A DNA stretch of 36,824 nucleotides from a plasmid. The notes under the pieces were generated by a model, which saw only the letters and a list, made by a program, of their open reading frames with translations, ran no database searches and had not been told where the DNA came from. The stretch lies in the sequence record NZ_CP124639.1. The stretch is one strand, 5' to 3'. Both the position numbers and the translations under genes were made by a program. Positions 331-24,618 of this stretch are shown piece by piece (position 1 is the stretch's first letter; every line of letters starts with the position of its first letter).

Positions 331-350
331 TTTGGATTGTGCAATCCAAA
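331..350. promoter_or_regulatory. Inverted repeat TTTGGATTG-tg-CAATCCAAA (9-bp arms, 2-bp spacer) in the divergent promoter region
   Basis: Read directly from the sequence; it sits immediately before the 22-bp operator copy at 350..371. Confidence 0.5.
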
Positions 351-371
351 TGATAGTCATTAGGCTATCAT
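350..371. promoter_or_regulatory. Copy of the 22-bp palindromic operator ATGATAG-TCATTAGG-CTATCAT
   Basis: Perfect 7-bp inverted arms ATGATAG/CTATCAT around an 8-bp core. Near-identical copies at 14804..14825, 14769..14790, 7365..7384 and a partial at 24375..24396. Confidence 0.55.
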
Positions 372-379
372 AAAGCAAG

Positions 380-488
380 TCCGACAAACGACCGTTTGAC
401 GGACACCCCGAAAAGTGTCCGCCAATGCCCTGTTGCATACGTTTGACGGACACATTAGAATAACGGACAATAAACGGACACAACGGAG
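380..488 (+). promoter_or_regulatory. Promoter/leader of ORF 498 carrying 5-6 copies of ACGGACA
   Basis: Direct 13-bp repeat GTTTGACGGACAC at 395-407 and 441-453. Palindrome GGACAC-N8-GTGTCC at 401-420. TTGACG -35-like hexamers. GGAGAG ribosome-binding site (RBS) 9 nt before the ATG at 498. Confidence 0.4.
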
Positions 489-497
489 AGCAACACC

Positions 498-836
498 ATG
501 AACGTCGAGAAACGCCAGCGCATCGAGCGCCGCATCGCACGCGAGGCCATCAAGGGGCTACTCGCCGAGGGCTTCAAGATTTCCGTCTTTGACGGCGAGG
601 AAACCGTACTGACCAAGAGCGTCAATCCGGCCGCCATCGAAAAGGCCATGTTCAGCACGGACGAGGATCAGTTTCACGTCGAGCGCGACGGCGGCGACAA
701 GCCGGAAACCGGCTGGGTGCTGTTCGTCTACGGCAACGACGGTTGGGACGTGATCGCCGACAACACCATGAACCTCGAACCGGCATTGAAGGGCGCGACC
801 GAGCTGGCCGACAAGATCGCCGAGGAAGAAGCGTAA
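498..836 (+). CDS. Hypothetical acidic protein (112 aa)
   Basis: Complete ORF with a GGAGAG RBS and high-GC codon usage; no motif recognised. Confidence 0.6.
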   Translation: MNVEKRQRIERRIAREAIKGLLAEGFKISVFDGEETVLTKSVNPAAIEKAMFSTDEDQFHVERDGGDKPETGWVLFVYGNDGWDVIADNTMNLEPALKGATELADKIAEEEA

Positions 837-891
837 TCCGTCAGGAAGGCCAGCCCGGCGGCTGGCTTTCCACACCACAGAGGAAAGGGAC

Positions 892-1299
892 ATGAGAGGG
901 CGCACATCACTAATCGTTGTTGTTGGGGCAGGCCTTGCATTCGCCGCGCTGGCGTTCGGTGTCATGCGGCGCAGCGAGGCAAACACGGATTTACGGCAAG
1001 CTGCTGTCGCTGACCTGCACGCGGCCGAGAACTACAACGGGTTCATTCAGCAGGTGGCCGAACACGCCCCGGAGGGCATGAAAAAGACCGTGGCCACCGC
1101 TTGGGCGAACTGCGCCCGCATCAGCACCAAATGGGTAGGCCGTCTGCCCGTATCGTCTGGCCCTTCGCAGCACGAACTAGACGTGTGCGAGGCCTCGGCC
1201 GTGCAGTTGGCCACCAGTCGCGGCCACGACGCCGCAGCATCAAGCCAATACGCCCAACGGCTCCGCGCTGCCAGCGCGGCCGTGCGGGCTTCTAACTAA
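892..1299 (+). CDS. Hypothetical membrane-anchored protein (135 aa)
   Basis: ORF with an N-terminal hydrophobic segment (LIVVVGAGLAFAALAFGV); an AGGAAAGGGA RBS-like purine run precedes the ATG. Confidence 0.55.
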   Translation: MRGRTSLIVVVGAGLAFAALAFGVMRRSEANTDLRQAAVADLHAAENYNGFIQQVAEHAPEGMKKTVATAWANCARISTKWVGRLPVSSGPSQHELDVCEASAVQLATSRGHDAAASSQYAQRLRAASAAVRASN

Positions 1300-1315
1300 G
1301 TAAGGAGACTCCGCT

Positions 1316-1930
1316 ATGTTGTTACATCTTGTGCCCCGCCTGTTCGCGTGCCGTGTCAACGAGCCGGAATGCGCCCTGATCGACTTTCATTGTCCTGCGC
1401 TCGGGCTGAAGCTGCGCAACGGCATCGAGCTGGTCGCCCGGCGACCCTACCCGAACAAGCACTATCTGGTGGCCTGCCGCAAAGTTGGCCAAAAGGCCAT
1501 GAACGGCTTTCTGGTCGAGACGACCGAGCGCGTGCGCGAGTTCACGACGCTGACCCGCTGGGCCGTCGGCGCTGATCGCATCGTCAACCATCAGGTGCAG
1601 TATTTCGTGCTCGATGACGAGCTGGACGCCATCACCGACTATATGCCGCTCTGGTATGCAACGTCGCCGAGTCTTGGCAGCTTCTCCAGTCGCTGGCCCG
1701 CCGTGGCCAACGACTGGACACCGGCCGCCGCACAGCCGCGCATGGAACTGGTCAGCCGCGACCGCGCTGGCCATTACGCCGACCGTCTCGATGATGCAGG
1801 CCGCGTGATCGAGCGGGCCGAAGTGTTTCAGTTGCATACCGTCGAGCGTGAGCGCGTTCTGTATCGCAGCAATTCATCCATTTATGACCGCATCCCGACC
1901 GCCGATATGGCGTTCCGGGCCACCATCTAA
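1316..1930 (+). CDS. Hypothetical protein (204 aa)
   Basis: Strong TAAGGAG RBS 8 nt upstream of the ATG; complete ORF, no recognisable motif. Confidence 0.6.
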   Translation: MLLHLVPRLFACRVNEPECALIDFHCPALGLKLRNGIELVARRPYPNKHYLVACRKVGQKAMNGFLVETTERVREFTTLTRWAVGADRIVNHQVQYFVLDDELDAITDYMPLWYATSPSLGSFSSRWPAVANDWTPAAAQPRMELVSRDRAGHYADRLDDAGRVIERAEVFQLHTVERERVLYRSNSSIYDRIPTADMAFRATI

Positions 1931-2024
1931 CCCACTCAAACCGACGCCGCCGGGCCTGCCGGTGGCGTCATGGAGACGTTGCCCAATGCGTGATCCTAAC
2001 GACCCCGGCACAATGGATATAGGG

Positions 2025-2615
2025 ATGACCACCCTTATCGGTTATGCCCGTGTCTCGACCGCTGACCAATCCCTTGATATGCAGATCGAGGCCTTGAAAA
2101 AGGCCGGTTGCGATCAGGTGTTCACTGATGTGGCCAGCGGGGCCAAGGCGGCCCGGCCGGGCCTAGATAAAGCCCTCGCATATCTGCGCGAAGGCGATAC
2201 GCTTGTAGTATGGAAGATTGACCGACTTGGCCGCTCGCTTCGCCATTTGGTGCAAACCGTGGACGAGCTGCGCGAGCGCGGCGTTACTTTCCGCTCGCTT
2301 ACCGACGCGGGAATTGACACCGCGACCCGGAACGGCAAACTACTGTTTAACCTGTTCGCCATGCTCGCCGAGTTTGAGCGCGACCTGATACGGGAGCGAA
2401 CCAAAGCGGGGTTGGCCGCCGCTGCGGCCCGAGGCCGCAACGGCGGGCGCAGGCATGTAGTAACACCGGCCAAGCTGGAAAGAGCACGTAAGCTGATGGC
2501 AACTAAGCGGATGACCGTCCGCGAGGCGGCCGCCGCTGTCAAAGTCGGCAAGACTGCCTTGTATGAGGCTTTGAAGGACGCCGGCGACGGCGACCGCACG
2601 GAGAGCGACGAATAG
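2025..2615 (+). CDS. Serine recombinase of the resolvase/invertase family (multimer resolution)
   Basis: N-terminus MTTLIGYARVSTADQSLDMQ carries the catalytic Ser in the GYARVS context. DRLGRS motif present. C-terminal HTH (TVREAAAAVKVGKTALYEAL). An alternative ATG at 2013 is possible; the long upstream extension from 1848 is implausible. Confidence 0.85.
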   Translation: MTTLIGYARVSTADQSLDMQIEALKKAGCDQVFTDVASGAKAARPGLDKALAYLREGDTLVVWKIDRLGRSLRHLVQTVDELRERGVTFRSLTDAGIDTATRNGKLLFNLFAMLAEFERDLIRERTKAGLAAAAARGRNGGRRHVVTPAKLERARKLMATKRMTVREAAAAVKVGKTALYEALKDAGDGDRTESDE

Positions 2616-2788
2616 GGCGGCCGGTGGCCGTCTCCGTTCGTTGACCTGTTTGGGTGCCAGTGTATCGGCTGGGCGGAATTGCAACGCTTTCAGCGTCCGC
2701 CACTGCGTTCCGGCCCAAGGGTGCAACAACCGCTTTCCAGCCGATTGACCACAGGCCCACAGGCCAACAACCGAACGGAGAAACCACC

Positions 2789-3037
2789 ATGAACTACACC
2801 GCCCTTTACTCGACCATCTACCGCGTGCGGAACCTTACCCGCACCGTCGCCAAAATCCTCGCTTGGGCGCTCGGTCTACAGCTCGCCATCCTCTACGGAC
2901 TGGCCACCGTCGCCGACGCGCCGCTGATGCAGCTTGCAGGCCCCGGCCTTCGCTTCGCGGCCGTGCTGGCCGTGGTGATCTTCGCCCCGCGAGTCTTCGA
3001 CGCCGCGCTACGCCGCATCGCCACCCGCCGGGCCTGA
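2789..3037 (+). CDS. Small hydrophobic membrane protein (82 aa)
   Basis: ATG preceded by GGAGAAACCACC; two predicted TM segments. The longer ORF from 2654 lacks an RBS. Confidence 0.45.
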   Translation: MNYTALYSTIYRVRNLTRTVAKILAWALGLQLAILYGLATVADAPLMQLAGPGLRFAAVLAVVIFAPRVFDAALRRIATRRA

Positions 3038-3171
3038 ACGGCTCGGCACCAAAGGGAAATTCCCGGCGCGGCGCTCGGCCGCCACCCAACTGCCCCGGCA
3101 AACCTCCCAGCAGCCCCTACACGGCCCGTTCGGCCCGTTGGCCTCCCTACCCTCTACCGCTTTTTCCTCCC

Positions 3172-3221
3172 GGCCCTCACAGGGCCTTTTTTGCGGCCAA
3201 AGAAAAAGGGCCGTGAGGCCC
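3172..3221. terminator. Back-to-back rho-independent terminators
   Basis: GGCCCTCACAGGGCC followed by TTTTTTG terminates plus-strand transcription. GGGCCTCACGGCCC followed by TTTTTCTTTGG (read on the minus strand) terminates the trb operon after the 156-aa ORF. Confidence 0.6.
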
Positions 3222-3268
3222 TTGCTTTCCTTGGTGTTGGTGGTCAGTCGTGGCGCTGACCTTCATCG

Positions 3269-3739
3269 TTAAAGGGAAATGCCGCCGCCCTTCGAGGCGC
3301 TGCGCTGTTGTTGTTGCGCCAGACTGGCGGCTTGGCCGGGCCGGGCGGTGCCCTTCCCGTTCACATAGCCGACCGTGTAGGTGCGACCGGCAACGATCTG
3401 GTCGCCCTTGGCTTCCAGATCGGCAAAGGCCGAGCGCGAATGCTCGACAATGCCCTTGCCGGAAAGCTGGTAGACCGCCTTGCTATCGACATGCAGAACC
3501 TGCCCGGTGTAGGCGGATTCCTTGCCATCCTTGCCGGTGTCCGGCTTGGTGGCTTCGGCCAGTTGGTAGATGCCCTTGGGCAGCCCGTTTTCCGGCAGAA
3601 CCTTGATAGTCATCCACTCGCCTTTCACCACCTGGTCGAGCTGGCGACTACCGTTCAGGACGCAGACCTTGCGCGAGCCTTCCGGCATCATCTTCGTGGT
3701 CGGCCCTATCGGGTTCAGGCTGTTGGGGGTGCTTGCCAT
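3269..3739 (-). CDS. Hypothetical protein (156 aa), last gene of the trb operon after trbI
   Basis: TAAGGAG RBS 8 nt upstream of the ATG at 3739 and a protein-like composition. The antisense 159-aa ORF (3308..3787) is a GC-rich shadow. Confidence 0.6.
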   Translation of the reverse strand: MASTPNSLNPIGPTTKMMPEGSRKVCVLNGSRQLDQVVKGEWMTIKVLPENGLPKGIYQLAEATKPDTGKDGKESAYTGQVLHVDSKAVYQLSGKGIVEHSRSAFADLEAKGDQIVAGRTYTVGYVNGKGTARPGQAASLAQQQQRSASKGGGISL

Positions 3740-3790
3740 ACGGTTTTACTCCTTACAGTGAAGGCGGCCGCGAACGGCCGCCGGTAGTCA

Positions 3791-5254
3791 TCAATTGCAG
3801 CCCTTGCCGGTGCTTCCGGCCATCGGGTGGCCTTCCCACGTCGGCAGGATAATGTCCTTCGTCACCATGATGTTGAACTCGTAGCCCGGACGGATTTCGA
3901 GCGTCGGCTGAATGTTCATGTTGCGTTGGGCCATCTGCATACCAATCTGCCCCATCTGCTGACCCAGCGACCCGGCGATGATTTGCGAGCTGCTGTAGTT
4001 CTCGCCGTTGCTGGCCTGCGGCTGCGAAAGCTGGATGCCTGCGGAGAAGACCGAAAGCAGCAAGCCACTGCCGAAGATGCGCAGATAATGGTTGTTCACC
4101 TTGTCATTGAAACCAGCATAGCCGCCCACATCAGCGCCCGGCATGTTGTCAATCGAGATCGAAGAACCATCCGGGTAGATGATGCGCCGCCAGACCGCGA
4201 GCGCCCGCTGCTGGCCGAGGGTTACGCCGCTGTCGTAGGTGCCAACCAAACGCGAACCCGGCGGGATCAGGCATTGCGTGCTGGTCGCGCTGTCGTACAC
4301 CGCTTCGCGCACCTGCCCGATGATTTGGCCCGGCAGATCGGAGTTGATACCGGAAATCATCACGCCGGGGATAACCCAACCGGCTTTGATTTCCTGCGAC
4401 GGAGCGACGGCCCCCTTGCGCTGGCGAGCCAAATAGACCTCAGCTTCTGGCGTGCCTGCGAGGAACGCTTGCTTGCGATCCTGTTGGTTCTCGGCCGCCA
4501 TGCTGTTGCCACCCATACCGCCACCGCCCATGCCCGGCATACCACCGCCCATGCCGCCCATACCTGCGGCCTGACCGTTCGCGGCCAAGTAGCGGTTCAT
4601 CAGCTCGTCCGCGTTGACGCGGTTCGCGCCCGCCTGCTGCATGGCCACCTGCTGGGTGCCGCCGTTCTGGCCGCCCTTGGTCGTGAAGCCCTGCACCGAG
4701 GCGTCACCGTTCAGGGCTTCGTCCCACTTGGCCAGTCGCTTGTCTTCGGCCTGCTGAATCTGCCGCAACCGGCGTTGCATGGCCTCAGACGGCGCGGCCG
4801 GAGCCGCTGCACGCTGCTGCCCTTCGGTCGGTTGTCCGCCGGTTTCGACCGGCTGCGCCGAGTCCGTGGGCATCTGCGGCTGACCTGCGGGGGGCACGTA
4901 GTCGTTGCCGTCCGGCCGCACAGGGGGAGCCGCTACCGTTGCCACTGGTGGCCCGTCGCCTTCGGCCTTCGGGGCAACCTGCGCCGCCTGCCGCTGGAAA
5001 AACGTGTAGCTGACGCCCGCCACAGCGAGCAGGATCACGCCACCGACAACGAACAACGGTTTGTTGTTCAGGCGGCGAACCCCCTTCCCTCTTTTTGGTG
5101 TCGCCAGATAGTCGGGCGAGCCGTTGCCATCCGCTCGCATATCAGGATCGTCGTGCATGTCCGCGTCGTCGTCATGCTCGCGGTCGTTATGCACTTCCGC
5201 ATCCTCAAGCGGCAGGTCGGTGTTCTGGTCGTTGTCTTTGTCGTGCGTGCTCAT
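3791..5254 (-). CDS. trbI: Conjugal transfer protein TrbI (VirB10 family)
   Basis: Acidic N-terminus, single TM segment (LFVVGGVILLAVAGV), Pro-rich linker, and the conserved VirB10 C-terminal domain (…IPPGSRLVGTYDSGVTLGQQRALAVWRRIIYPDGSSI…). ATGA overlap with the trbH stop. Confidence 0.9.
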   Translation of the reverse strand: MSTHDKDNDQNTDLPLEDAEVHNDREHDDDADMHDDPDMRADGNGSPDYLATPKRGKGVRRLNNKPLFVVGGVILLAVAGVSYTFFQRQAAQVAPKAEGDGPPVATVAAPPVRPDGNDYVPPAGQPQMPTDSAQPVETGGQPTEGQQRAAAPAAPSEAMQRRLRQIQQAEDKRLAKWDEALNGDASVQGFTTKGGQNGGTQQVAMQQAGANRVNADELMNRYLAANGQAAGMGGMGGGMPGMGGGGMGGNSMAAENQQDRKQAFLAGTPEAEVYLARQRKGAVAPSQEIKAGWVIPGVMISGINSDLPGQIIGQVREAVYDSATSTQCLIPPGSRLVGTYDSGVTLGQQRALAVWRRIIYPDGSSISIDNMPGADVGGYAGFNDKVNNHYLRIFGSGLLLSVFSAGIQLSQPQASNGENYSSSQIIAGSLGQQMGQIGMQMAQRNMNIQPTLEIRPGYEFNIMVTKDIILPTWEGHPMAGSTGKGCN

Positions 5255-5709
5255 TGCGCACCCCCTCGAACCGTGAACGGGGCACCCGGCAGGAGCTGGC
5301 CATTAGAGCCGCGCGGGTAGTACCGGCTGGCCTCGATGCCCTGATATTGCAGACGCAGCAGCACGCCGCTATCGAGCGGCGATGCGATGTAGCGCAGAGG
5401 CACACCCGCACCACCGGCCTTGCCGGTCTGCGGATCAACCAACGTCACGCCGTAGCCCCGCGCACGGAGCGCGGGCAGCATGGCCGCCGTCAGTGCGTCG
5501 TGATCCTTCGCGGCAGGAGGATCGAGCACAATGGTGGTTCGCGCAGGAGGAAGCGGATCGGCCAGATAGGCGACCGTATCGCTTGCGAGCGTCTGCGCAT
5601 CGCTGGCCGTCACGGTCGGTTCGACGTAGGACATGGTAGGCCGCGACGTTGCGCAGGCGCTCAGGAGAAGCGCCGCCGCGAGCGGCGCAATCAGGTGAAG
5701 GCGTGCCAT
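5251..5709 (-). CDS. trbH: Conjugal transfer lipoprotein TrbH
   Basis: Start MARLHLIAPLAAALLLSAC gives a lipobox (LSAC). Its position between trbG and trbI matches the trb order. The ORF-track extension to 5769 overlaps trbG and is rejected. Confidence 0.7.
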   Translation of the reverse strand: MARLHLIAPLAAALLLSACATSRPTMSYVEPTVTASDAQTLASDTVAYLADPLPPARTTIVLDPPAAKDHDALTAAMLPALRARGYGVTLVDPQTGKAGGAGVPLRYIASPLDSGVLLRLQYQGIEASRYYPRGSNGQLLPGAPFTVRGGAQ

Positions 5710-5710
5710 C

Positions 5711-6649
5711 TTATTTGCCCCCCGTGCGCGTAATGGTGACTTCGGTTTGGTTGCGGCCGACGCCGACAATCAGAGACGCCCGATCCGGCACCTTATCGAC
5801 CACGTAGCGATCGCCGATCGGGCGGTAATTGACGAGCTTCTCGGTAGCCTTCGAGAACAGGCCGCCATCGTTGCCCTTGGCCACCAGTGCCGGGGCCTCG
5901 CCGCCGAAGCTCGCCGATGGGAACTGAATGTAGGTCTTGGTGCCATCCGTGTAGACGCGCACCGGCTTCCAGCTCGGGCTATCACCGCCAATGCGGAAAC
6001 CGAAATCGAGGTTGGCCAGATTCTGGCCGGTCGGCATGGTGTTGTTGTAGACCTGCTTGGCGTGCTGCTCGCGGTACGCGGCCCACTGGCGTTCTACGTC
6101 GTCGGGATAGTCGAACGACAGCACCGGAATCCACTCGCGTTGCGTGCTGGCCAGCTTGATCGAGTACAGGCGGCGGTCAGTGGCCACGCTCAGGTTAGTG
6201 ACCAGTCCGGCGTCGGTAGGCTTGACCACAATCACGGTCGTAGCGTTCGCCCCGCTGCCCATCGTGGCCGGGGTGATTTTCCAACGTGCGTTGTCGCCCG
6301 CGTGAACGTCGTTCACTACCTCACCCGGTTGCAGCTCGATATTGCAGACCTGCAAGGGTGTGCAAACCAACGTCGGCAGGGTGGCACCAAAAAGGTATTT
6401 CACGCTGCCGTCTGCGCCACGGCGCGGGCGGTCAGGGTGTGACTTCCATTGATTGGCCAAGCGGATGCCGTAGGCCTCCTTGCCATCGAGCCGCACCTGA
6501 TCGGGCGACACCAGATTGACCGGCGGCAGAACTTCACCTTGGCCAGCAGCGAGCGCCGGAACGTCTTGCGCGAACGTGGGGGCAGCAATTGCGGCAACGA
6601 AAAGGCCCGCCATCCATTGAGTCTTTTTCATATATTCACCAGTCATCAT
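5711..6649 (-). CDS. trbG: Conjugal transfer protein TrbG (VirB9 family)
   Basis: Signal peptide …KKTQWMAGLFVAAIAAPTFAQD and the VirB9/CagX/TrbG fold sequence. The ATG overlaps the trbF stop (TAATGATG); an alternative ATG lies at 6631. Confidence 0.85.
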   Translation of the reverse strand: MMTGEYMKKTQWMAGLFVAAIAAPTFAQDVPALAAGQGEVLPPVNLVSPDQVRLDGKEAYGIRLANQWKSHPDRPRRGADGSVKYLFGATLPTLVCTPLQVCNIELQPGEVVNDVHAGDNARWKITPATMGSGANATTVIVVKPTDAGLVTNLSVATDRRLYSIKLASTQREWIPVLSFDYPDDVERQWAAYREQHAKQVYNNTMPTGQNLANLDFGFRIGGDSPSWKPVRVYTDGTKTYIQFPSASFGGEAPALVAKGNDGGLFSKATEKLVNYRPIGDRYVVDKVPDRASLIVGVGRNQTEVTITRTGGK

Positions 6650-7347
6650 TAGTTGCGAACGGGCCAAGAGAATTGGCGGACGTAGAGGCCAACCGGGTTG
6701 GCCATAAGCTGGGCTTCATCCTTCGGCGCAGCGATCAGGACGTTGGCCGTGAGCTGATAGCTTTGGGTGCCGATCAGCTTGCCGGAAGTGCGGTTTTTCA
6801 CCGTTTCCGTCCACTCGACTTGCCAAGTGTCTTTCGAGAGCTGGACAGGCGTTTGCATGGCCACCTCGACGGTTTCATTGGCGGCCCGCTGATACGGGTT
6901 GTGCTCCCGGTGATACGTGGCCAGCGTCTGATACGCGGCGCTGTCGGGCAGCGTCATCGCATAGGTCGCATCGACGACGCGCTTGGTTGCCCGGTTGTCC
7001 GCGTACACCGTGCGAGCACCAAGAACCCAATCTTGCAGCGCAGCGCGGATTTGTTCGGTCTTCGGCCCCGGCGTGGCCTGATCGGCCCGCCAGATTTCGC
7101 GGCTTTTGCCGTTGGCGTCGGTGTTGACGTAGTAGACCGCGATTTTCTCTTTGGAAGCCTGAATGACATTCCCGGCCGCCGAGAGAATCAGCGCGACACC
7201 AACGACAAACGCGGCCGTCCGCCAGTTGCGGGCGTCGATGATATGACTGCCATAACGCTCGTTCCACTCGCGGCGGGCTGCGAGGTAAGGCGTGCCGGGC
7301 GGGGCTTTCGGTGCCCGCTGACCCTTTTTCTTGCTATTGGGTTGCAT
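6649..7347 (-). CDS. trbF: Conjugal transfer protein TrbF (VirB8 family)
   Basis: N-terminus …YLAARREWNERYGS, a single TM segment, and the VirB8-like periplasmic domain typical of TrbF. Confidence 0.85.
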   Translation of the reverse strand: MQPNSKKKGQRAPKAPPGTPYLAARREWNERYGSHIIDARNWRTAAFVVGVALILSAAGNVIQASKEKIAVYYVNTDANGKSREIWRADQATPGPKTEQIRAALQDWVLGARTVYADNRATKRVVDATYAMTLPDSAAYQTLATYHREHNPYQRAANETVEVAMQTPVQLSKDTWQVEWTETVKNRTSGKLIGTQSYQLTANVLIAAPKDEAQLMANPVGLYVRQFSWPVRN

Positions 7348-7364
7348 AAGTACGTCCGTCCATT

Positions 7365-7384
7365 TGATAGTCTGTAGACTATAT
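7365..7384. promoter_or_regulatory. Operator copy (TGATAG-TCTGTAGA-CTATAT) 18 bp upstream of the trbF start codon
   Basis: Same 22-bp palindrome family as 350..371 and 14804..14825. It follows a hairpin at 7401..7432. Confidence 0.5.
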
Positions 7385-7400
7385 TATTGGCCAAAGTAAC

Positions 7401-7432
7401 CCCTCCTAGCAAGCACTAGGAGAGGCTTTTTT
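7401..7432 (-). terminator. Hairpin CCTCTCCTAG-N6-CTAGGAGG between the 101-aa ORF and trbF; possible attenuator or partial terminator
   Basis: 7-bp stem CTCCTAG/CTAGGAG with a T-run on the top strand and a weak U-tract (UUACUUU) on the minus-strand transcript. Confidence 0.3.
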
Positions 7433-7436
7433 CGGG

Positions 7437-7742
7437 TTAGTCCCGGCGATTGTTGCGTTGATGCTTCGACAGTTCTTCGAGGTCGTCCCACATGTCGCGG
7501 CTGCGACGGTTGCCGAACAGGGGAACCCTGCTCAGTCCGCGCCCTACGCTGACCATTGCGCCGCTCAGAGGGCGGAACAGCCAGCGCGTTTTTCGCTGGG
7601 CGGTGGACACTTTCGCGTCGATTTTGTCGAGCTGGTCACTGTAGCCTTTACGGCGCAACCACTGCCCTAACGCCCATAGTCCAAGGCCTATCAAAAACAT
7701 GGCCAGCAAGGGCAGGAAGAACAAGGCGAGTTCGGCGATCAT
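7437..7742 (-). CDS. Small membrane protein (101 aa) inserted between trbL and trbF
   Basis: N-terminal TM (LALFFLPLLAMFLIGLGLWALG) followed by a basic tail. Its ATG lies 3 nt after the trbL stop. It is not part of the canonical trb set. Confidence 0.55.
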   Translation of the reverse strand: MIAELALFFLPLLAMFLIGLGLWALGQWLRRKGYSDQLDKIDAKVSTAQRKTRWLFRPLSGAMVSVGRGLSRVPLFGNRRSRDMWDDLEELSKHQRNNRRD

Positions 7743-13760: not shown

Positions 13761-14744
13761 CTATATCGGTTTAGTGAGGTATTGAGTGCCGTCGTGCCCT
13801 TCGACCGTGACGACTTCCTTGATCCGCCTCCCGCCTGCTGTTTTCTCAATCGAAACGATCAAGTCCACAGCCTCAGCGATCAGCGCGTGCATCGGCGCCT
13901 GCGTAGCCTCAGCCACAAGCTGTTCCATGCGGATAAGGCCCGCAGGTGCCGAATTTGCGTGAACAGTGGCGGCCCCGCCGGGGTGGCCAGTGTTCCAAGC
14001 CTTGAGCAAGGCCAACGCCGCGCCGTCGCGGACTTCGCCGACCAAAATACGGTCGGGCCGCAGGCGCATGGTTGCCTTGAGTAGCCGGGTCATATCGACG
14101 TGATCGACGGCCCGGAGAATGACGACGTTCTTGGCGGCGCATTGCAGCTCGCCCGTATCTTCGATGATGACGATACGGTCTTGCGGGCAGGCCTTCGCCA
14201 TGTAGTCGATGATGCCGTTTGTGAGGGTGGTTTTGCCGGTGCCGGTGCCACCAACGACCAGAACGTTGCGGCGGTTGCGTACAGCGGCCTCGATGGCCTC
14301 GCACTGCGCCTGCGTCATGATGCCCGACTCCACGTAGTTATCGAGCGTGAAAATCTTCGACGCCTTCTTACGGATCGTGAAAGTAGGCCCGGCCACAACC
14401 GGAGGAATCAACGCCTCAAAGCGCGAACCATCCAACGGTAGTTCGCATTCGAGAATCGGATTCAGGGCCGTGATTTGGGTGCGCAGCGTCGAGGCCACCG
14501 TACCCATGAGCGATTCGGCCCGAGAGGCCGGGAGCGTGCCAATCTTTTCCATTGGTGCCCCGAGCCGTTCAACCCACAACGTACCGTCGGGGTTGAGCAT
14601 GATTTCGATCACTGTCGAGTCTTCCAGCAGCTCGCATATTTGCGGCCCGAGTTCGCGCCGCAATTTTTCCGTTATGCGCTTATCGTGTTCTGCACGATTT
14701 GATGCGATGCTGGGAGACTTCGGATCGGATGCAGTTACGTCCAT
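13761..14744 (-). CDS. trbB: Conjugal transfer ATPase TrbB (VirB11 family)
   Basis: Walker A motif GGTGTGKTT and the VirB11/TrbB family sequence. GGAAGG RBS. Confidence 0.9.
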   Translation of the reverse strand: MDVTASDPKSPSIASNRAEHDKRITEKLRRELGPQICELLEDSTVIEIMLNPDGTLWVERLGAPMEKIGTLPASRAESLMGTVASTLRTQITALNPILECELPLDGSRFEALIPPVVAGPTFTIRKKASKIFTLDNYVESGIMTQAQCEAIEAAVRNRRNVLVVGGTGTGKTTLTNGIIDYMAKACPQDRIVIIEDTGELQCAAKNVVILRAVDHVDMTRLLKATMRLRPDRILVGEVRDGAALALLKAWNTGHPGGAATVHANSAPAGLIRMEQLVAEATQAPMHALIAEAVDLIVSIEKTAGGRRIKEVVTVEGHDGTQYLTKPI

Positions 14745-14768: not shown

Positions 14769-14825
14769 AACATAGTCTAAAGCCTATCACTGCTTTCGCA
14801 GATATGATAGTCTATAGGCTATCAA
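14769..14825. promoter_or_regulatory. trbB promoter region with two tandem operator copies: AACATAGTCTAAAGCCTATCAC at 14769-14790 and ATGATAGTCTATAGGCTATCAA at 14804-14825
   Basis: Read directly; same palindrome family as 350..371, spaced 35 bp centre to centre. Confidence 0.5.
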
Positions 14826-14924
14826 TCGCGCAAGCGATTTGGCAAGCCTGAAAGACGAAGCCCCCACAAGTTTGGGGGGGCTTCTTGGCAGAACAGAGAC
14901 GGAAAGGGGACGAGTGTTGCAGAG

Positions 14925-15197
14925 TTACGACGGAGGAACGAGAAGCTGCCACAGCGGCACACCGACACATTTGGCCAGCTCGGCCATGTTGTCGATGTTG
15001 AGCGGTGACTTGCCCGTTTCTACTTCGCTGATCCATGACTGTGCGAACCCCGTCTTATCCTTGACTGCGCGCTGGCTTAGTTTTGCGGCCTTGCGTGCCT
15101 TACGGAAATTGCGGGCAAAAATCAGCCGCTCCGCTGGCACCGGCTTTTCGTTTTCGTTGCTATCGGTGTCGCGTCGGCTAGGCATTCGGCGTGGCAC
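14925..15197 (-). CDS. XRE-family HTH transcriptional regulator (TrbA-like position: upstream of trbB, divergent from rep)
   Basis: HTH_3 signature (AKLSQRAVKDKTGFAQSWISEVETGKSPLNIDNMAELAKCVGV) and a strong AAGGGAGG RBS. Confidence 0.75.
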   Translation of the reverse strand: MPRRMPSRRDTDSNENEKPVPAERLIFARNFRKARKAAKLSQRAVKDKTGFAQSWISEVETGKSPLNIDNMAELAKCVGVPLWQLLVPPS

Positions 15198-15342: not shown

Positions 15343-16584
15343 ATGAACGGACCTAAGCCAATCAGTGACATTGTGGGGGGCAATCTGCTGGCCAGACTAG
15401 AGCAGACGCACCAGAGGTATCGCGAAAAAGTGGAGGCCGCAGCCCTGCCCGGCGAGACGTTCGAGCAAGCCGAGAAGCGCCTACGCGAAGAAGGCGAACG
15501 CGAACAGAGGCGGAAAAGTAACGAGGTCGCCCAGCAACAAGCCGAGGCAACTTTGGCCGCACAGTTGCGCGATAGAAGCCCTATCCCGCGAAGCCCAATC
15601 CCTAACACATCGTCCCCCAGTGGACAGACCAAACGGAGCAATTCGGCCTCAATGCGTCGCCCTCCCGAGAGCGACCGACAGCCCGACTTTTTCGTGCCGG
15701 GTCTGTACGACGTAGCCACCAAGGACAACCGTAGCCTGATGGACGTTGCGCTGTTCCGCCTGTCAAAGCGCGACAAGCGAGCAGGCGAAGTGATCCGCTA
15801 CGACCTGCCGGACGGCTTCGTTGAAGTGAAGGCCGGGCCGGATGGCATGGCGTCGATATGGGACTACGACATTGTGCTGATGCTCATCTCACACCTAACC
15901 GAGTCGATGAATCTTTTCAATGCCGGGCGCGGTGCCATGCCGGGCAAGAAATTCGTCCCGCACGCCTCAGATATTGCCAAGTTCTGCCGCCGTGGCGACG
16001 GCGGGCGTCAGGTTGACCAGTTGGAAGCTGCGCTTGACCGTCTGCTGGGAACGACCATCAAGAGCGTGCGCGAGACACCATCACGCAACGGCAAGCGCGT
16101 CGTGCGCGAGACAGAAGCGGAAAGTCTCATTGGCCCCTACCGCGTCGTGTCCCGCACCGACACCGGCAAGGTGGCCAGTGTCGAGATTGAGGCACCAAAC
16201 TGGATTTACCGGGAAGTGACCGGAGGCAGGCAGCCGGACGTGCTGACCGTTCACCCGGACTACTTCCTGATCGAGCCGGGCCTTGGCCGGTTCGTCTACC
16301 GTCTCGCTCGCCGTGCTGCTGGCAAGAACACGGCCAAGTGGGCGTTCAAGACTATCTACGAGCGCAGCGGCAGCACGGGCACATTCAAAGAGTTCTGCCG
16401 CATGATGCGCCGCCTGATCGACGCCAACGACCTGCCCGAGTATGAATTGCGCGAGGAAGACGGCCAGAGCGGCCCGCTGCTACTCATCACGCGCCGTACC
16501 GACGCGGTGGAGCTGGCCGCCGAGGACGAACCCGATGCAGACGGCGACGAGCAGGAGAACGGCGAGAATGCGCCCGGTGTGTAA
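15343..16584 (+). CDS. repA: Plasmid replication initiator (iteron-binding Rep, TrfA/RepA-like)
   Basis: 413-aa ORF with an AAAAAGGAG RBS, immediately followed by iterons; its TAA stop lies inside the first iteron. Confidence 0.7.
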   Translation: MNGPKPISDIVGGNLLARLEQTHQRYREKVEAAALPGETFEQAEKRLREEGEREQRRKSNEVAQQQAEATLAAQLRDRSPIPRSPIPNTSSPSGQTKRSNSASMRRPPESDRQPDFFVPGLYDVATKDNRSLMDVALFRLSKRDKRAGEVIRYDLPDGFVEVKAGPDGMASIWDYDIVLMLISHLTESMNLFNAGRGAMPGKKFVPHASDIAKFCRRGDGGRQVDQLEAALDRLLGTTIKSVRETPSRNGKRVVRETEAESLIGPYRVVSRTDTGKVASVEIEAPNWIYREVTGGRQPDVLTVHPDYFLIEPGLGRFVYRLARRAAGKNTAKWAFKTIYERSGSTGTFKEFCRMMRRLIDANDLPEYELREEDGQSGPLLLITRRTDAVELAAEDEPDADGDEQENGENAPGV

Positions 16585-17080: not shown

Positions 17081-17524
17081 TCATTTCCCCTTTGGTGCCC
17101 CCTCCCCTTGATCCTTGGGATCAGCCGGATCGACCGCCTTGCCCTTTCTGACCGCCTTGGGCTTCGCGTGACCAGCCTTGCGCAAGGCTTTGCCGACCTC
17201 CCCCATGCCGTGCCAGATCGCGGCCGCCTGTTCAGGGCGCAGCTCCTGCCCTTCCCTGATGGCCTTGGACAGCGTGACCAGCCACCGATCCGCAGACATG
17301 GCCGTGTAGGCCTCCTGCGACTTCTGCGAGGCTTCCCGGCGCTTGGCCAGCCATTCGGCCAGCGTCTCGCGTTCGGCCTCTGTCAGCTCATCCAGCCCGG
17401 TCGTGGGCATTTCCGTCGTATAGCGGGCCAGTGTGGCAATGACCGTCTGCCGACCCCGGCCAATGGCCTTGTCGTACACGGTGCGGATGCACTGAATTTT
17501 GCGGCCCTGTTCACGTATCTGCAT
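17081..17524 (-). CDS. Hypothetical protein (147 aa) with a Lys-rich C-terminal tail; candidate autoregulated DNA-binding protein
   Basis: GGGGG RBS before the ATG at 17524. The palindrome TGCGGATAA-ATGG-TTATCCGCA lies 20-40 bp upstream. Confidence 0.55.
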   Translation of the reverse strand: MQIREQGRKIQCIRTVYDKAIGRGRQTVIATLARYTTEMPTTGLDELTEAERETLAEWLAKRREASQKSQEAYTAMSADRWLVTLSKAIREGQELRPEQAAAIWHGMGEVGKALRKAGHAKPKAVRKGKAVDPADPKDQGEGAPKGK

Positions 17525-17544: not shown

Positions 17545-17910
17545 GTGCGGATAAATGGTTATCCGCAGTAATGATAGCACACTATCCGCAGGCGGATAAA
17601 AAATAAACATCACATTTCAGATAGAAACCTATCCGCATACAGCTATCATAGCAGCAGCATATGCCGATAATCGCACTATCTGCACATGCAGACGCTGCGC
17701 TATCCGCATACCGATGAAAAACTATCACGCTACATCATGTTAGATTTTCATCCGCATGCGGACGATTTATTATCCATTGTGCGGATACTTTCTTATCGGT
17801 ATGCCGGATAATCAGCTATCCGTATAGGCTTGCGCCCGGGCGCAGGCGGAAGATGCACCAAAGCAGATAACCGCCCGGTTAATATGCGGATAGAAAATTA
17901 TCCGAAATTG
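17545..17910. promoter_or_regulatory. AT-rich array of at least 9 TATCCGCA motifs, mostly arranged as inverted pairs (DnaA-box-like or operator array)
   Basis: 17545-17566 TGCGGATAA-N4-TTATCCGCA. 17582-17597 TATCCGC-AG-GCGGATA. Also 17628-17638, 17698-17710, 17751-17762 TCCGCATGCGGA, 17769-17786, 17814-17825 and 17884-17905. Confidence 0.55.
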
Positions 17911-17923: not shown

Positions 17924-17959
17924 TTGACAGGTTATCGTTTATAAACGACAATATCAGAC
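17924..17959 (+). promoter_or_regulatory. higB promoter: TTGACA -35 hexamer, 12-bp perfect palindrome CGTTTATAAACG over the -10 region
   Basis: Read directly. A palindrome overlapping the promoter is typical of toxin-antitoxin autoregulation. Confidence 0.45.
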
Positions 17960-18286: not shown

Positions 18287-18289
18287 ACG

Positions 18290-18601: not shown

Positions 18602-18644
18602 TAGCCTGCGGGCTATACGCCCGCCCTTGTCCTTCCTTTTGGTG

Positions 18645-18680: not shown

Positions 18681-18736
18681 ATGGGTGCCGGTGGTTTAGT
18701 TGGCAATCACATCGGCCGGGCGACCGTCCCGGCGTT

Positions 18737-19105: not shown

Positions 19106-19129
19106 GCTCCTTTCCTCTATGCGATGGCG

Positions 19130-19992: not shown

Positions 19993-20003
19993 TGGCGACC
20001 CCC

Positions 20004-20954: not shown

Positions 20955-21159
20955 CGTCTTTTGCTCCTGTTATGTACCGGACGACGTAGCGATTGAATTG
21001 GGAATAGCTGATGCCCAATTCCGCCTCGCCGCCAAAGTCGTCGTAGATCGTGCGCTGTTCGTTACCCGCTGCGAGCAGTTCCCGGAACTGCTCTAAGCGG
21101 GCCAGAAACGCGACACGTCCTGCGCCCCGGCGGGGCTTTTTGCTTGGCGTGTCTGCCAT
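20776..21159 (-). CDS. 127-aa protein encoded out of frame over the 5' extension of parA (korA-like placement); putative DNA-binding regulator
   Basis: AGGAGG RBS before the ATG at 21159. HTH-like segment TIYDDFGGEAELGISYSQFNRYV. Its stop lies 17 nt before the internal parA start. Confidence 0.55.
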   Translation of the reverse strand: MADTPSKKPRRGAGRVAFLARLEQFRELLAAGNEQRTIYDDFGGEAELGISYSQFNRYVVRYITGAKDDGHQRKGTGQIAPPSPSPAPTGAAGGQARGSSTPAEKPGQKRPGFQHNPNSGNDRDDLI

Positions 21160-21210
21160 GCCTGTTTCCTCCTAGTGAAGCCCGCGAATCAATCGCGGCA
21201 CCTCAGTCTA

Positions 21211-21335
21211 CCCTATAACGCGATACTACGCGAATCTAAGCGATTTAATGCGACTGTACGCGATTCTATGCGATTGGGCAAGCCTTTTTATGCGATTCTA
21301 CGCGATACTATGCGATTGTGTGCGATTCATCGCGG
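21211..21335. repeat. About 10 tandem 10-bp repeats (GCGAT-type) in two phased clusters upstream of the korA-like/parA operon; candidate centromere/operator. Contains the right arm (21229..21275) of the 47-bp inverted repeat
   Basis: CGA at 21221, 21231, 21241, 21251, 21261 and 21271. GCGAT at 21292, 21302, 21312 and 21322. Flanked by AATCGCGG and ATCGCGG in the opposite orientation. Confidence 0.75.
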
Positions 21336-21399
21336 TTTTCGGCCCTTGGGCCGGGTTTTGGGTGGATCATCAGGGCACAGTCGCCTACAATCGCAGAGA

Positions 21400-21556
21400 G
21401 GTAGCAGGCAAGATGTGTGTTGTAGGCCTACGCTGCTACGCAGCTAGGGCCTCCACCACCGCCCCTTACTCGCCTGCGGCTCGACGGCATCTTGCTCTGC
21501 GAGGCTGACAGTCGCTGCCGCGACACCAACAAATCGACCGGGAGGACGAACTTGGA
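21400..21556 (+). promoter_or_regulatory. oriT: Candidate oriT and traJ promoter region
   Basis: Perfect 10-bp palindrome GTAGGCCTAC. Hairpin GCTGC-TAC-GCAGC. Downstream ATCTTGC at 21489-21495 resembles the IncP nic core ATCCTG/C. Sits immediately upstream of the MobC-like gene and the MobP relaxase. Confidence 0.35.
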
Positions 21557-21925
21557 ATGACAGATGAGGCACCAAAGAAAGGCCCACACGGGGGCCGCCC
21601 AAGAGGGCAACACATTAAGGTTTGGGTGAACAACGACGAAAAGGCCGAGCTGGCCGACCGGGCCGCTCAGGCCGGTTTATCGTTGTCCGCTTATATGAAG
21701 GTTGCCGGACTTAACGCGCCGATCCGGGCACGCTCCGACTTGTCGGCCGTGACCGATCTTGTGCGCGTGAATGGCGACCTAGGCCGAGTGGCCGGGCTGC
21801 TGAAATTGTGGCTTGCGGAGAAGCGAGGGCAGGGTGCCCGCCCGGTGGACGTGGAAGCCATGATGAAGGACTTTCGCGCCCTACAGGAAGAACTCCGCTC
21901 GATCATGATCCGGGTGGCGAGATGA
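21557..21925 (+). CDS. traJ: Relaxosome accessory protein (MobC/TraJ-like, ribbon-helix-helix)
   Basis: 122 aa; …IKVWVNNDEKAELADRAAQAGLSLSAYMKVAGLN… matches the MobC family. ATGA overlap with the relaxase start. Confidence 0.75.
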   Translation: MTDEAPKKGPHGGRPRGQHIKVWVNNDEKAELADRAAQAGLSLSAYMKVAGLNAPIRARSDLSAVTDLVRVNGDLGRVAGLLKLWLAEKRGQGARPVDVEAMMKDFRALQEELRSIMIRVAR

Positions 21926-24618
21926 TTGCCCACCGCATCGAGCGCAAGCCGCATCAGTCATCGAACCCGGCCAAGCTGGTCAGGTACATGGTGGCGGCTA
22001 AGGGCGGCATCGACCCGACGAGCTGGGAACGCACGGCCGACTACATTCTGGACACCGCGAACGACACCACCAAGGGCGAGAAGGTCGCCAGCTACCGCGT
22101 TACCAACTGCGGCACGGACGACCCCGCCGACGCTGCGATCCTGATCTTGGCCACACAGGGGGCCAACACCAGGTCAAAGACGGAAAAGACGTATCACCTT
22201 GTCTATTCCTTCCCGCCCGGTGAGCGGCCCGACATTGAAGTGCTGCACGCCATTGAGGACGAGCTTTGCGAAGCCATCGGCTTCGGCGACCACCAACGAG
22301 TGTCGGCCGTCCATATCGACACCGATCACCTGCATGTGCATGTCGCCATCAACAAGGTTCACCCGACAGGGCTGCAAAACATCGAACCGTACTACGACAA
22401 GCGCAGGCTGATGGAGGCGTGCGAACGCCTCGAATTGAAGTACGACCTACAGCGAACCAACCACGGACTAGAGGACAAACAACATGAGCACACCAGAGAA
22501 CGAAGCGACCGAATCCAGCTTGATCGAGGTCAGCGACCAGAGCAGCGCGATAGTAGATTTCGACGATATTTACGAGAGTCCTACGATCTCTCGTTTGCCG
22601 ATGAACCAGAGGCCAAAACCCTCAACGGTCTGCGAACGCTGTCCGGCTGCCGTATGGTTCGCGCTTCCGAAAGAACTTCGGTGCTATTGCCGGGTGATAC
22701 ACGCGGTGATCTACAGCAACGAGGAAAAGAACGCGCTAACGGCCTGCGACGGTCGGGACATGGCGATAGAACAGCTATTGGCCAAGCAGGAAGCGGCGGA
22801 CGCGGCCGGGTAAGCGGCAAAGCCGCCGACGCAGAGGCTCACAGCGGCATCGAGACGCTGACCGGATACGCGGCCCGCGAGCTGGCCCCGGCGATGCGAC
22901 AGGCGACGAGCTGGCAGGAGCTGCACGACGCAGCGGCCGAGCACGGCCTAGAGGTTCGCCAGCGCGGCGCTGGCCTTGTCATCGGCGAGCCAGATTTAGG
23001 CATTTGGGCGAAGGCCAGCAACGTCGGCCGCGACCTTTCCATGAAGGCCCTAACTGACCGTCTTGGCCCGTTCCAGCCTTCCGAACGGCAGGCCGAGGCG
23101 AAGGCGAACCGCAAGCGGTACGAGCCACGACCCCGGCGGCCGGATAACCCGACGACAGCGGGCCTGTTCAACCAGTACCAGCGCGAGCGACAGGCGGCCA
23201 TTTTGGCCCGCCGTCAGGGCCTCGACCAGATCAAGCGCGAGAGTGCGGCTTTCAATGCGCAGGTGAAGCAGTGGAGCCAGACAGAGCGAATGCTTTTGAA
23301 GGTCGCGGGCAAGGGGCCGACCAAACGCCTGATGTACGGCACTATCAAACAGCAGGCCGACGCCTCGCGCCAAAAGAACCGGCAGAGCGCAGACGCTCGC
23401 CGTCAGGCGCTGTTCAAACAGACGACGATGCCCACTTGGGCCGACTGGCTGACGCAGCAGGCCGAGCGCGGCAACGCCGAGGCGCTGGCCGTGCTACGCG
23501 ACCGCGAGGAACGGACACGCCGCTGGAACGGCGAGCTACTGACCGCCGACCGGGCCGACAAGGCCAAGGCTGTTGTTCTCGACAAGCTCAAGCCCAAGGC
23601 TCGGAAAGACGGGACGATGGCATACAGCACCATCGACGGCGGCATGGTGATCGACCGGAAGACGCACGTTCAGGCGCAGAAAGCCACGACCGGCGCGGCA
23701 CTGGTAGCGCTCGAACTGGCATCCAAGCGGTTCGAGGGCCAAGCCCTCATCGTGGAAGGCACGGACGAGTTCCGGCTTGAAGTCGCCCAGCTCGCCGGTA
23801 TGCACGGCCTCAAGGTCACGTTCACCGATCCGGCGATGGAGCAAATGCGCCGCGAGACGGCCGAGCACAAGGAAATGGAGAAGGCCTTTCAGGCCGAAAT
23901 CAAGGCATCGAGCCGCGACGACTTCGCCGAACTGGTGGACTTCGGCAAAGCGCCGTTCGAGCACATCAAGGGCAACCGCAAGAGCTACTTCGTCACGCTG
24001 CGCGACGGGAACGGCGAAGACCGAACCCTATGGGGCGTCGATCTTGAAAGGGCGGTGGCAAATAGCGGTGCGGCCGTGGGCGACCGCGTGCGTGTCAATC
24101 ACATGGGCAGCGAGAGCGTGACGCTACCGGACGGCCGGACGGTGGAGCGCAACGAATGGCGCATGGAGACAGCACCAAAAGGAAGCCAGACAGCCAAGCC
24201 GAAACCGAACCGTCCAACCCCTGCGCCGAACGACATGGATGCGGCGTTTTTGGCCGAAACTGGCCTGTCCGGCAAGACGACGGGAAACCGGACAGGCGGC
24301 AAGCCCGCGCAGCCCGTGGATTCTGGCCCGGCGGTGCAAAAATGGATTGAAGAACGCAACAAAAATAGAGACAAAATATCGTCTATAGACTATCATCGGC
24401 TTTGGCAATCCACCGACGCAGGCAGGGCCACATATCAAGGTCGCAGGCGCATGGAAGACGGTAGCGAAGTGCTGTTGTTGAAGCGCGGCGATGAAATGTT
24501 GGTCAAGCCATCCACCCCCCGCGTAGTCGCCAAGGCGGCGACATGGAAACTAGGTCGCGTCGTCCAGTTGGACGGACGTGGACGATTCACTGACAGGAGT
24601 AACGAGGTCGAACTATGA
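21922..24618 (+). CDS. traI: MobP-family conjugative relaxase (TraI-like), 898 aa with a long C-terminal extension
   Basis: Motif III HIDTDHLHVHVAINKVHP (3-His). N-terminal …YHLVYSFPPGERPD. ATG at 21922 coupled to the traJ stop. The ORF-track start at 21808 is an upstream extension. Confidence 0.85.
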   Translation: MIAHRIERKPHQSSNPAKLVRYMVAAKGGIDPTSWERTADYILDTANDTTKGEKVASYRVTNCGTDDPADAAILILATQGANTRSKTEKTYHLVYSFPPGERPDIEVLHAIEDELCEAIGFGDHQRVSAVHIDTDHLHVHVAINKVHPTGLQNIEPYYDKRRLMEACERLELKYDLQRTNHGLEDKQHEHTRERSDRIQLDRGQRPEQRDSRFRRYLRESYDLSFADEPEAKTLNGLRTLSGCRMVRASERTSVLLPGDTRGDLQQRGKERANGLRRSGHGDRTAIGQAGSGGRGRVSGKAADAEAHSGIETLTGYAARELAPAMRQATSWQELHDAAAEHGLEVRQRGAGLVIGEPDLGIWAKASNVGRDLSMKALTDRLGPFQPSERQAEAKANRKRYEPRPRRPDNPTTAGLFNQYQRERQAAILARRQGLDQIKRESAAFNAQVKQWSQTERMLLKVAGKGPTKRLMYGTIKQQADASRQKNRQSADARRQALFKQTTMPTWADWLTQQAERGNAEALAVLRDREERTRRWNGELLTADRADKAKAVVLDKLKPKARKDGTMAYSTIDGGMVIDRKTHVQAQKATTGAALVALELASKRFEGQALIVEGTDEFRLEVAQLAGMHGLKVTFTDPAMEQMRRETAEHKEMEKAFQAEIKASSRDDFAELVDFGKAPFEHIKGNRKSYFVTLRDGNGEDRTLWGVDLERAVANSGAAVGDRVRVNHMGSESVTLPDGRTVERNEWRMETAPKGSQTAKPKPNRPTPAPNDMDAAFLAETGLSGKTTGNRTGGKPAQPVDSGPAVQKWIEERNKNRDKISSIDYHRLWQSTDAGRATYQGRRRMEDGSEVLLLKRGDEMLVKPSTPRVVAKAATWKLGRVVQLDGRGRFTDRSNEVEL
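22484..22813 (+). CDS. Candidate overlapping gene inside traI (alternative frame), acidic 109-aa protein; TraH-like arrangement
   Basis: ATG at 22484 preceded by GAGGACAAACAAC; acidic N-terminus (ENEATESSLIEVSDQSSAIVDFDDIYES). By analogy, RP4 traH lies within traI in another frame. This is not proven to be coding. Confidence 0.2.
   Translation: MSTPENEATESSLIEVSDQSSAIVDFDDIYESPTISRLPMNQRPKPSTVCERCPAAVWFALPKELRCYCRVIHAVIYSNEEKNALTACDGRDMAIEQLLAKQEAADAAG
24375..24396. promoter_or_regulatory. Partial operator copy (AATATCG-TCTATAGA-CTATCAT) inside the 3' end of traI, about 220 bp upstream of traG
   Basis: The right arm and core match the 22-bp palindrome family; the left arm is degenerate. Confidence 0.35.

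Follow-up and report, generated by a model that had tools for sequence, protein, structure and literature searches.

The stretch of DNA considered here, 36,824 bp from sequence record NZ_CP124639.1 and called the window throughout, carries a recurrent 22-bp palindrome at its transfer genes and a gene for an 86-residue XRE-family protein that is the leading candidate to bind it. The window was found to be a complete circular plasmid of the pSN1216-29 family. The open reading frame (ORF) of a secreted nuclease continues over both window ends, which means that the window is the whole plasmid, opened inside the nuclease gene. As for family membership, for which more than 95% identity of repA/oriV and backbone to pSN1216-29, pKPN-704, pJHX613 or pEC743_4 was required, identity is 97-99% over 3 kb spanning trbB, XRE and repA. 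Relatives of 35-38 kb at 97-99% identity come from E. coli, Citrobacter, Proteus, Providencia, Klebsiella, Pseudomonas and Serratia, and pSN1216-29 itself is a captured plasmid; the family was defined previously (PMC6232296). In the literature on this family, as far as it could be searched, no description of its regulation was found.

The mating-pair formation (Mpf) genes lie on the minus strand in the order trbB-C-D-E-J-L-orf-F-G-H-I. The DNA-processing (Dtr) genes traJ-I-G-F, followed by slt, traC and topA, lie on the plus strand. The replication gene repA begins at 15343 on the plus strand and diverges from the XRE gene. The genes and palindrome copies on which the argument turns are as follows.

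1..323 (5' part) and 36464-36824, minus strand: gene of the secreted SNase-type nuclease, which reads through the window ends without a break and has the SNase domain in its C-terminal part
350..371: putative operator in the divergent region between the nuclease operon (minus) and ORF498 (plus)
6649..7347, minus strand: trbF (VirB8), first gene of the trbF-G-H-I block
7364..7385: putative operator of an internal promoter of trbF (virB8), directly after a hairpin
13761..14744, minus strand: trbB (VirB11), first gene of the Mpf operon under the putative operator, named from the annotation of close relatives
14769..14790: putative operator O2, in the trbB leader at about +12 to +33, 35 bp from O1 on the gene side
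14804..14825: putative operator O1 of the trbB promoter, covering the spacer and the -10 element; in minus-strand sense it reads TTGATAGCCTATAGACTATCAT
14925..15185, minus strand: XRE-family helix-turn-helix (HTH) gene, 86 aa, proposed repressor; the ORF list starts it at GTG 15197, and relatives are annotated from ATG 15185
24375..24396: putative operator inside traI near its 3' end, with the traG ATG 218 nt further on
24615..26573, plus strand: traG (coupling protein), downstream of the putative operator inside traI

The consensus of the five window copies, ATGATAGTCTA|TAGACTATCAT, is a perfect palindrome. A search with GATAGTCTATAGGCTATC at no more than 3 mismatches returned exactly these five loci in the window, compared with the 0.00 copies expected from dinucleotide shuffles (n=100). 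A scan with a symmetrised 22-bp position weight matrix (PWM), of the kind suggested in the original prediction that first noticed the motif, gave the same five sites at 27.3-34.7 bits, with the next-best position in the 36.8 kb at 14.6. The best score was that of O1 (34.7), followed by the sites in traI (33.2), at trbF (32.3) and at 350..371 (32.2), and by O2 (27.3). The original prediction had thus located and placed every copy correctly to within 1-2 nt, although several of its details need correction. The copies it called near-identical are similar, but differ from the best copy at 2-3 positions within the 18-nt core. The perfect 7-bp inverted-repeat arms that it ascribed to them are present at 350-371 and not at the other four. 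The copy in traI, which it took to be partial, is a full 22-mer and is the best conserved of all across lineages. Its statement that sites lie before trbB and upstream of trbF holds on the minus strand, where the trb genes lie, with 16 nt separating the site from the trbF ATG.

The comparison with related plasmids that had also been proposed showed the motif at homologous positions in many diverged plasmids. The relatives examined were pMBUI2 and pMTY11353_3 (lineage L003; lineages are designated by L numbers), whose replicon is different and whose trb DNA is approximately 75% identical; the rearranged Sphingomonas plasmid pDS5; and contigs from Pantoea, Pseudochelatococcus, Xenorhabdus, Rhizobium, Comamonas, Salmonella and several metagenome bins. 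Replicons of the RPA (RepA), TrfA, RepA_C and pMBUI2 (Rep) types are represented among them, and their hosts span the Gamma-, Alpha-, Beta- and Delta-proteobacteria. Among motif-bearing lineages, the XRE protein is 60-92% and TraI 55-62% identical.

In about 18 diverged lineages, which between them have at least four replicon types, the motif occupies the same three positions at transfer genes. In 17 of the 18 Trb-type lineages examined, a copy stands between the XRE gene and trbB, 77-106 bp after the XRE stop codon wherever the distance was measured. The site upstream of trbF was found in about 11 lineages (including L002, L003, L009, L013, L026, L027, L028, L030, L032 and L033), in most of them 14-35 nt before the ATG; in L033 the gene call overlaps the site. 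The traI site was present in nine lineages out of nine, 222-240 nt before the end of the gene. The 350 site is conserved in L001, L024, L025 and L003 and weakly in L002; in plasmids of the pSN1216-29 and pMBUI2 types it persists regardless of which gene opens the minus-strand operon. O2 occurs only in the pSN1216-29 lineage (L001, L024, L025, L026) and is degenerate in pMBUI2-type relatives. Given this conservation, the motif could serve to mark this transfer-system lineage in sequence data.

Across 35 non-redundant sites from all lineages, the motif has full two-fold symmetry and a total of 27.9 bits, with A4/T19, T5/A18, G7/C16, C9/G14 and T10/A13 nearly invariant. Such symmetry is typical of the site of a dimeric HTH protein.

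Four promoter regions of the window carry sites, namely those of trbB (two copies), trbF, traG and the nuclease/SprT operon. The promoter-like and terminator-like elements associated with them are listed below.

350..378, minus strand: promoter-like element of the nuclease operon, TTGCTT(378..373)-17-TATCAT(355..350), read by eye
7383..7412, minus strand: promoter-like element of trbF, TTGCTA-18-AATAAT, its -35 in the hairpin loop and its -10 overlapping the operator edge
7403..7422: terminator-like hairpin after orf7437, with an A-run on one side and a T-run on the other; relatives keep it with compensatory differences
14828..14833, minus strand: putative -35 of trbB, TTGCGC, read by eye, followed by an 18-nt spacer and the -10 TATCAT (14809..14804)
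14861..14878, minus strand: terminator-like hairpin between the XRE gene and the trbB promoter; an equivalent hairpin is kept in relatives
24368..24396, plus strand: promoter-like element of traG, GAGACA-17-TATCAT, found by the promoter scanner

At trbB, traG and the nuclease operon, the gene-proximal arm of the palindrome, TATCAT, is itself the -10 hexamer. Furthermore, the geometry of these elements is conserved. O1 starts 2 nt after TTGCGC, and the arrangement of a TTGnnn hexamer, 2 nt and the operator recurs in L002, L003, L008, L009, L011 and L013. The promoter hexamers of trbF are conserved in L002, L003 and L009, and an nnGACA element ahead of the traI motif is kept in most of the lineages compared. 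In the 35-site alignment, the gene-proximal arm AGACTATCAT hardly varies, unlike the much looser distal arm; this asymmetry fits a gene-proximal arm that doubles as half-operator and -10. The comparative evidence therefore agrees with the suggestion, made originally, that trbF and traG are internal control points within the long operons. On the other hand, the term global regulon is generous for four promoter regions, which would form a small regulon.

Several other features lie next to these sites. An 18-bp near-perfect palindrome, TTGGATTGTGCAATCCAA, with 9-bp arms and a non-symmetric central TG, occupies positions 332-349, with the motif copy at 350 immediately beside it, and separates the putative nuclease promoter from the nuclease start codon. 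The window has no second copy of this palindrome, which is kept beside the motif in L001, L002, L003, L024 and L025 and is probably the operator of a second, local regulator. On the other side of the motif, positions 378-480 contain 4-5 direct and inverted copies of CGTTTGACGGACA / ACGGACA over a promoter-like element of ORF498, TTGACG-17-GACAAT (443-471). In pMTY11353_3, all copies of the CGTTTGACGGACA type are changed together to GGGAC-type boxes, a concerted change that hints at a local regulator evolving along with them, perhaps one encoded in the ORF498 operon. At 7437-7742, between trbL and trbF, a small conserved ORF of 101 aa without a family match ends just ahead of the unit of hairpin and operator, and this arrangement is kept from Enterobacterales to Rhizobium.

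The 22-mer within traI encodes K-I-S-S-I-D-Y-H, and its identity across lineages is 0.90, compared with 0.50 and 0.61 in the flanks; in an alignment of 154 nt, the best-conserved 22-nt window (0.91 vs a median of 0.60) begins 2 nt ahead of the motif. When seven non-redundant lineages were compared in pairs, codon identity at conserved residues came to 0.95 inside the motif but 0.33 in the flanks. The codons ATA, TCG, TCT, ATA and TAT are fixed in the motif and CAT nearly so, with CAC in one lineage; of these, ATA, TCT, TAT and CAT are rare codons, and only 2 of the 28 isoleucine codons of the window's traI are ATA, both of them inside the motif. The encoded residues, by contrast, vary (SID, SLN, SIH, SIG) while the DNA pattern persists. 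The freezing of synonymous codons points to selection on the DNA, and at the level of sequence the motif inside traI is seen to be under such selection. It provides a clear case of a regulatory site kept within coding sequence through frozen rare codons.

It might be asked whether the repeat is a site for a transcription factor at all, as opposed to one for recombination or resolution, partition or a host factor, or a set of symmetrical promoter elements. The plasmid does have a resolvase (~1986-2615) and no recognisable ParA/ParB partition system, and the palindrome arms hold -10-like hexamers on both strands. Yet resolution sites cluster by the resolvase gene, while these copies sit precisely at gene starts, and the symmetry is kept at trbB, trbF and traG, where bidirectional promoters are not needed. 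A host range from Gamma- to Delta-proteobacteria argues against a single host factor, and in the nearest Trb systems the motif vanishes together with the XRE gene. This explanation is thus highly improbable, and chance, a mobile repeat and a host-factor site were rejected on placement, symmetry and phylogenetic distribution. Instead, the homologous positions, the overlap with promoters and the DNA-level selection in traI support the proposal of a palindromic operator for a dimeric HTH repressor, and the motif is very probably a functional protein-binding operator.

The XRE protein matches the PF01381 HTH_3 profile with 36.8 bits over residues 32-82, against a cut-off of 23. Its AlphaFold model, with a predicted local distance difference test (pLDDT) score of 82, shows a five-helix domain of the Cro/cI type (helices 18-33, 38-45, 49-56, 64-74 and 78-82) and a basic N-terminal arm, residues 1-17, which is of low pLDDT (disordered). 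The nearest structures are NHTF, C.BclI, C.AhdI, the N-terminal domain (NTD) of Stl, ClgR and lambda cI-NTD, with a Foldseek probability of 1.00 for NHTF, C.BclI, C.AhdI, ClgR and lambda cI. These nearest structures of the domain are dimeric operator-binding repressors, and the protein would most likely bind as a dimer, with which the symmetry of the motif is compatible. Its family comprises 66 clusters at 90% identity, all with generic names and none called TrbA.

Besides the HigA antitoxin and the relaxosome proteins, the XRE protein is the only protein of the window with a recognised regulator-type DNA-binding domain. Its gene adjoins the trbB operator in every motif-bearing lineage examined, and it is the only dedicated regulator common to all motif-bearing elements. 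In pDS5, the XRE gene and two good sites are retained and homologues of ORF498 and of the 36237-36530 product are absent. In L018, two tandem XRE paralogues lie upstream of trbB (6075-6724), each followed by its own motif copy. (L018 is a metagenome contig binned as 'Bacillales', and is probably a mis-binned proteobacterial plasmid.) Conversely, no motif was found in the nearest Trb systems that have no XRE gene, those of Campylobacter pCC42 and Acinetobacter pMsp65 (TrbB 62% identical) and of IncP-1 R751 (53%). Of the two binders that the original prediction had named, the XRE regulator at 14925..15197 is thus strongly favoured by its co-occurrence with the motif. The second, an HTH protein at 36237..36467, is unsupported: it matches no DNA-binding family or solved structure in Pfam, NCBIfam, PHROG or PDB, and neither pMBUI2 nor pDS5, both of which keep the motif, carries it.

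Should the operator be real but bound by another plasmid protein, the candidates would be the product of 36237-36530 (p36237, 76/97 aa), that of ORF498, HigA, or an unrecognised small protein, and the XRE protein would have some other function. The 350 site does belong to the regulatory region of the operon in which p36237 is encoded, and faces ORF498, as would be expected of an autoregulated global regulator; the XRE gene is without a site of its own, and XRE homologues of Xanthomonas occur without the motif. The presumed HigA operator at 17931-17952, moreover, is a loosely similar palindrome. However, profile and structure-sequence searches with p36237 and the ORF498 product as binders found nothing. 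In addition to the absences of p36237 noted above, ORF498 is acidic, falls in PHROGs of unknown function and is missing from pDS5. HigA has a distinct palindrome of its own, at 14-15 bits, and the HigA of pDS5 is only 28% identical although the motif there is unchanged. A binder other than the XRE protein therefore seems unlikely.

The palindrome attributed to HigA, GTTATCGTTTATAAACGACAAT, lies 8 nt upstream of higB and is kept in L001, L009 and L027; it is presumably the HigA/HigBA operator, and is the best non-member hit of the motif PWM (14.6 bits). Several imperfect inverted repeats built on TATCCGCA / TGCGGATA are also present at 17583-17825, between orf17081 and higB.

Nevertheless, a number of observations weigh against the assignment of the operator to the XRE protein. 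Its association with the motif is partly confounded by synteny, as both belong to one conserved cassette and any other conserved factor would be distributed in the same way. Plasmids of Xanthomonas and Xylella encode XRE homologues that are 59-79% identical and likewise lie directly upstream of a type IV secretion system operon, and no recognisable motif was found in them; the Mpf proteins of these plasmids have diverged much further (TrbB 25-42% identical). Differences in the recognition helix explain this pattern poorly, as the E-to-A variants L013, L026 and L029 and the variant L027 (SQAFISN) keep the motif. The region upstream of the XRE gene itself has no motif, so that a common signature of autoregulation is missing. 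Finally, a consensus promoter scan (threshold 9/12 matches) gave no hit at the trbB or the nuclease promoter, both of which were read by eye and draw their support from conserved geometry.

Two further lines of enquiry were abandoned. A search for covariation between recognition helix and operator over about 20 lineages yielded no clean rule, since E-to-A and W-to-F variants keep the motif and the Xanthomonas variants are without it. A replacement palindrome was sought in L004, one of the Xanthomonas plasmids with XRE homologues at 71-79% identity: the palindrome ATTAAATAAGCTTTATTTAAT (17270-17290) between XRE and trbB is unique in L004. A recurrent palindrome of the same plasmid, TTGCATGCTTGCATGCAA at 5333, 30923, 33319 and 43684, seems unrelated.

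Weighing these observations together, it is probable that the 22-bp palindrome is the operator of the plasmid's XRE protein and that this protein represses the promoters to which it would bind. The direction of control is suggested by placement, in that a protein bound over the spacer, -10 and start site would be expected to occlude the promoter and so to repress it. The XRE protein could conversely activate these promoters, or act as a concentration-dependent dual switch like the C proteins of restriction-modification systems, given that C.BclI and C.AhdI are among its nearest structures and that trbB has two tandem sites 35 bp apart, recalling the paired C-boxes of C proteins. Activation appears quite improbable, though, as the operator covers the spacer and -10 and not the region from about -40 to -60, the second trbB site is lineage-specific, and the -10 hexamers are already good (TATCAT, TATAAT).

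In the proposed circuit, the XRE repressor, most likely as a dimer, would occupy the 22-bp sites at the four promoter regions. Bound protein would exclude RNA polymerase at trbB, traG and the nuclease operon, where the operator arm doubles as the -10, and the same occlusion would apply at trbF, where the operator overlaps the -10 and start region. The candidate repressor gene, with a terminator of its own, adjoins trbB on the upstream side and is transcribed away from repA. In established cells, the mating-pair and coupling genes would thereby be held low, and in a new transconjugant a burst of expression could occur before the repressor accumulates. The circuit would have a single candidate repressor, with five operators spread over four promoters of which two are internal, and should determine how often these plasmids are transferred and what fitness cost they impose. 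The pSN1216-29 and pMBUI2 types are broad in host range, common in clinical Enterobacterales and Pseudomonas, and found fused with IncC resistance plasmids. Taken as a whole, the sequence evidence indicates that the operator set is real, conserved and previously undescribed, and that the candidate repressor is well supported.

The cassette of XRE gene, terminator and operator-promoter is shared almost unchanged among at least four unrelated replicon types (RPA-RepA, TrfA, RepA_C and pMBUI2-Rep), and plasmids with these replicons are presumably compatible. It is conceivable, if rather doubtful, that the cassette is portable, that repressors cross-recognise each other's operators and that co-resident plasmids repress each other's transfer. 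If true, this would constitute a trans-acting fertility-inhibition network, with the traI-embedded operator as its most conserved node.

The proposed circuit can be compared with several known systems. With the XRE repressors of the Cro/cI type (lambda cI-NTD, 434, NHTF of Neisseria, ClgR), the window protein shares the five-helix fold and a symmetric operator of about 20 bp over the promoter, and with lambda cI also the flexible basic N-terminal arm. It differs from them in its operator, in being a single domain without a C-terminal oligomerisation or cleavage domain, and in its context, which is plasmid transfer and not phage. The C proteins C.BclI and C.AhdI resemble it with an E-value of 3e-4, a template modelling (TM) score of 0.67-0.88 and 26% identity, and they too are small single-domain XRE proteins acting on paired palindromes. 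However, no restriction-modification genes were found nearby, where the neighbours are repA and trbB, or in the annotated relatives. C-boxes have the form GACT..AGTC, which seems unlike the window motif, and the position of the window sites would imply repression only.

The reuse of one palindromic operator at several backbone promoters, including that of a non-transfer operon, recalls KorA, KorB and KorC of the IncP-1 plasmids, although proteins and operators are unrelated and the window regulon, with its four promoter regions, is smaller. KorC of RA3 is another global plasmid regulator that ties backbone modules together through a reused operator. The operator consensus sequences of KorA and KorB are GTTTAGCTAAAC and TTTAGCSGCTAAA, the latter of which is seen in R751. 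At up to 2 mismatches, the window contains 0 and 1 matches to them, which is chance level, while R751, which carries these operators, has no copy of the window motif (best PWM score 10.7). The original view that the motif matches neither operator is therefore correct. The absence from the window of KorA and KorB and of their operators also makes cooperation with KorB impossible.

The closest parallel is TrbA of the IncP-1 plasmids (RK2/RP4, R751), which is described as repressing globally through operators at trbBp and at the promoters of traJ/traK (PMC7314908). In both systems, a gene for a small HTH protein, the proposed repressor in the window, immediately precedes trbB and diverges from the gene of the replication initiator, a layout that is the same in R751; Mpf and Dtr expression would be linked in the window as well, and the logic of a post-transfer burst followed by repression fits both. 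TrbA also represses traGp. The proteins themselves are nevertheless distinct. The XRE protein is 23% identical to R751 TrbA over 52 HTH residues only, and scores 21.5 bits with the NCBIfam TrbA model (NF010465), below the cut-off of 96. At 86 aa, it ends 4 residues after helix 5 and has no C-terminal domain, whereas R751 TrbA has 120 aa; the C-terminal domain of TrbA is KorA-like. The trbB promoter region of R751, read directly, carries TTCGATATATCGTA and not the window motif.

The sets of target promoters differ as well, the window having extra sites at trbF and the nuclease/SprT operon and none at the traJ/traK promoters; a search of its oriT region for the motif found no copy. In L003 (12202-12223), L008 (2705-2726) and L029 (8198-8219), a motif-like palindrome of the TTATCGCCTAAAGGCGATAA type is present between traJ and traK, in the oriT region, the same place where IncP-1 TrbA also acts. 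The window itself has, at 21218-21335, a dozen repeats (A/T)(A/G)CGCGAT(A/T)(C/T)T phased at about 11 bp. They lie in the interval from the traK start (21159, minus strand) to the putative nick region and look like binding sites for a TraK-type oriT accessory protein. Together, these likenesses and differences are best read as indicating that the XRE protein is a functional and positional analogue of IncP-1 TrbA and not its orthologue, and the circuit proposed here belongs to a familiar class of plasmid transfer control.

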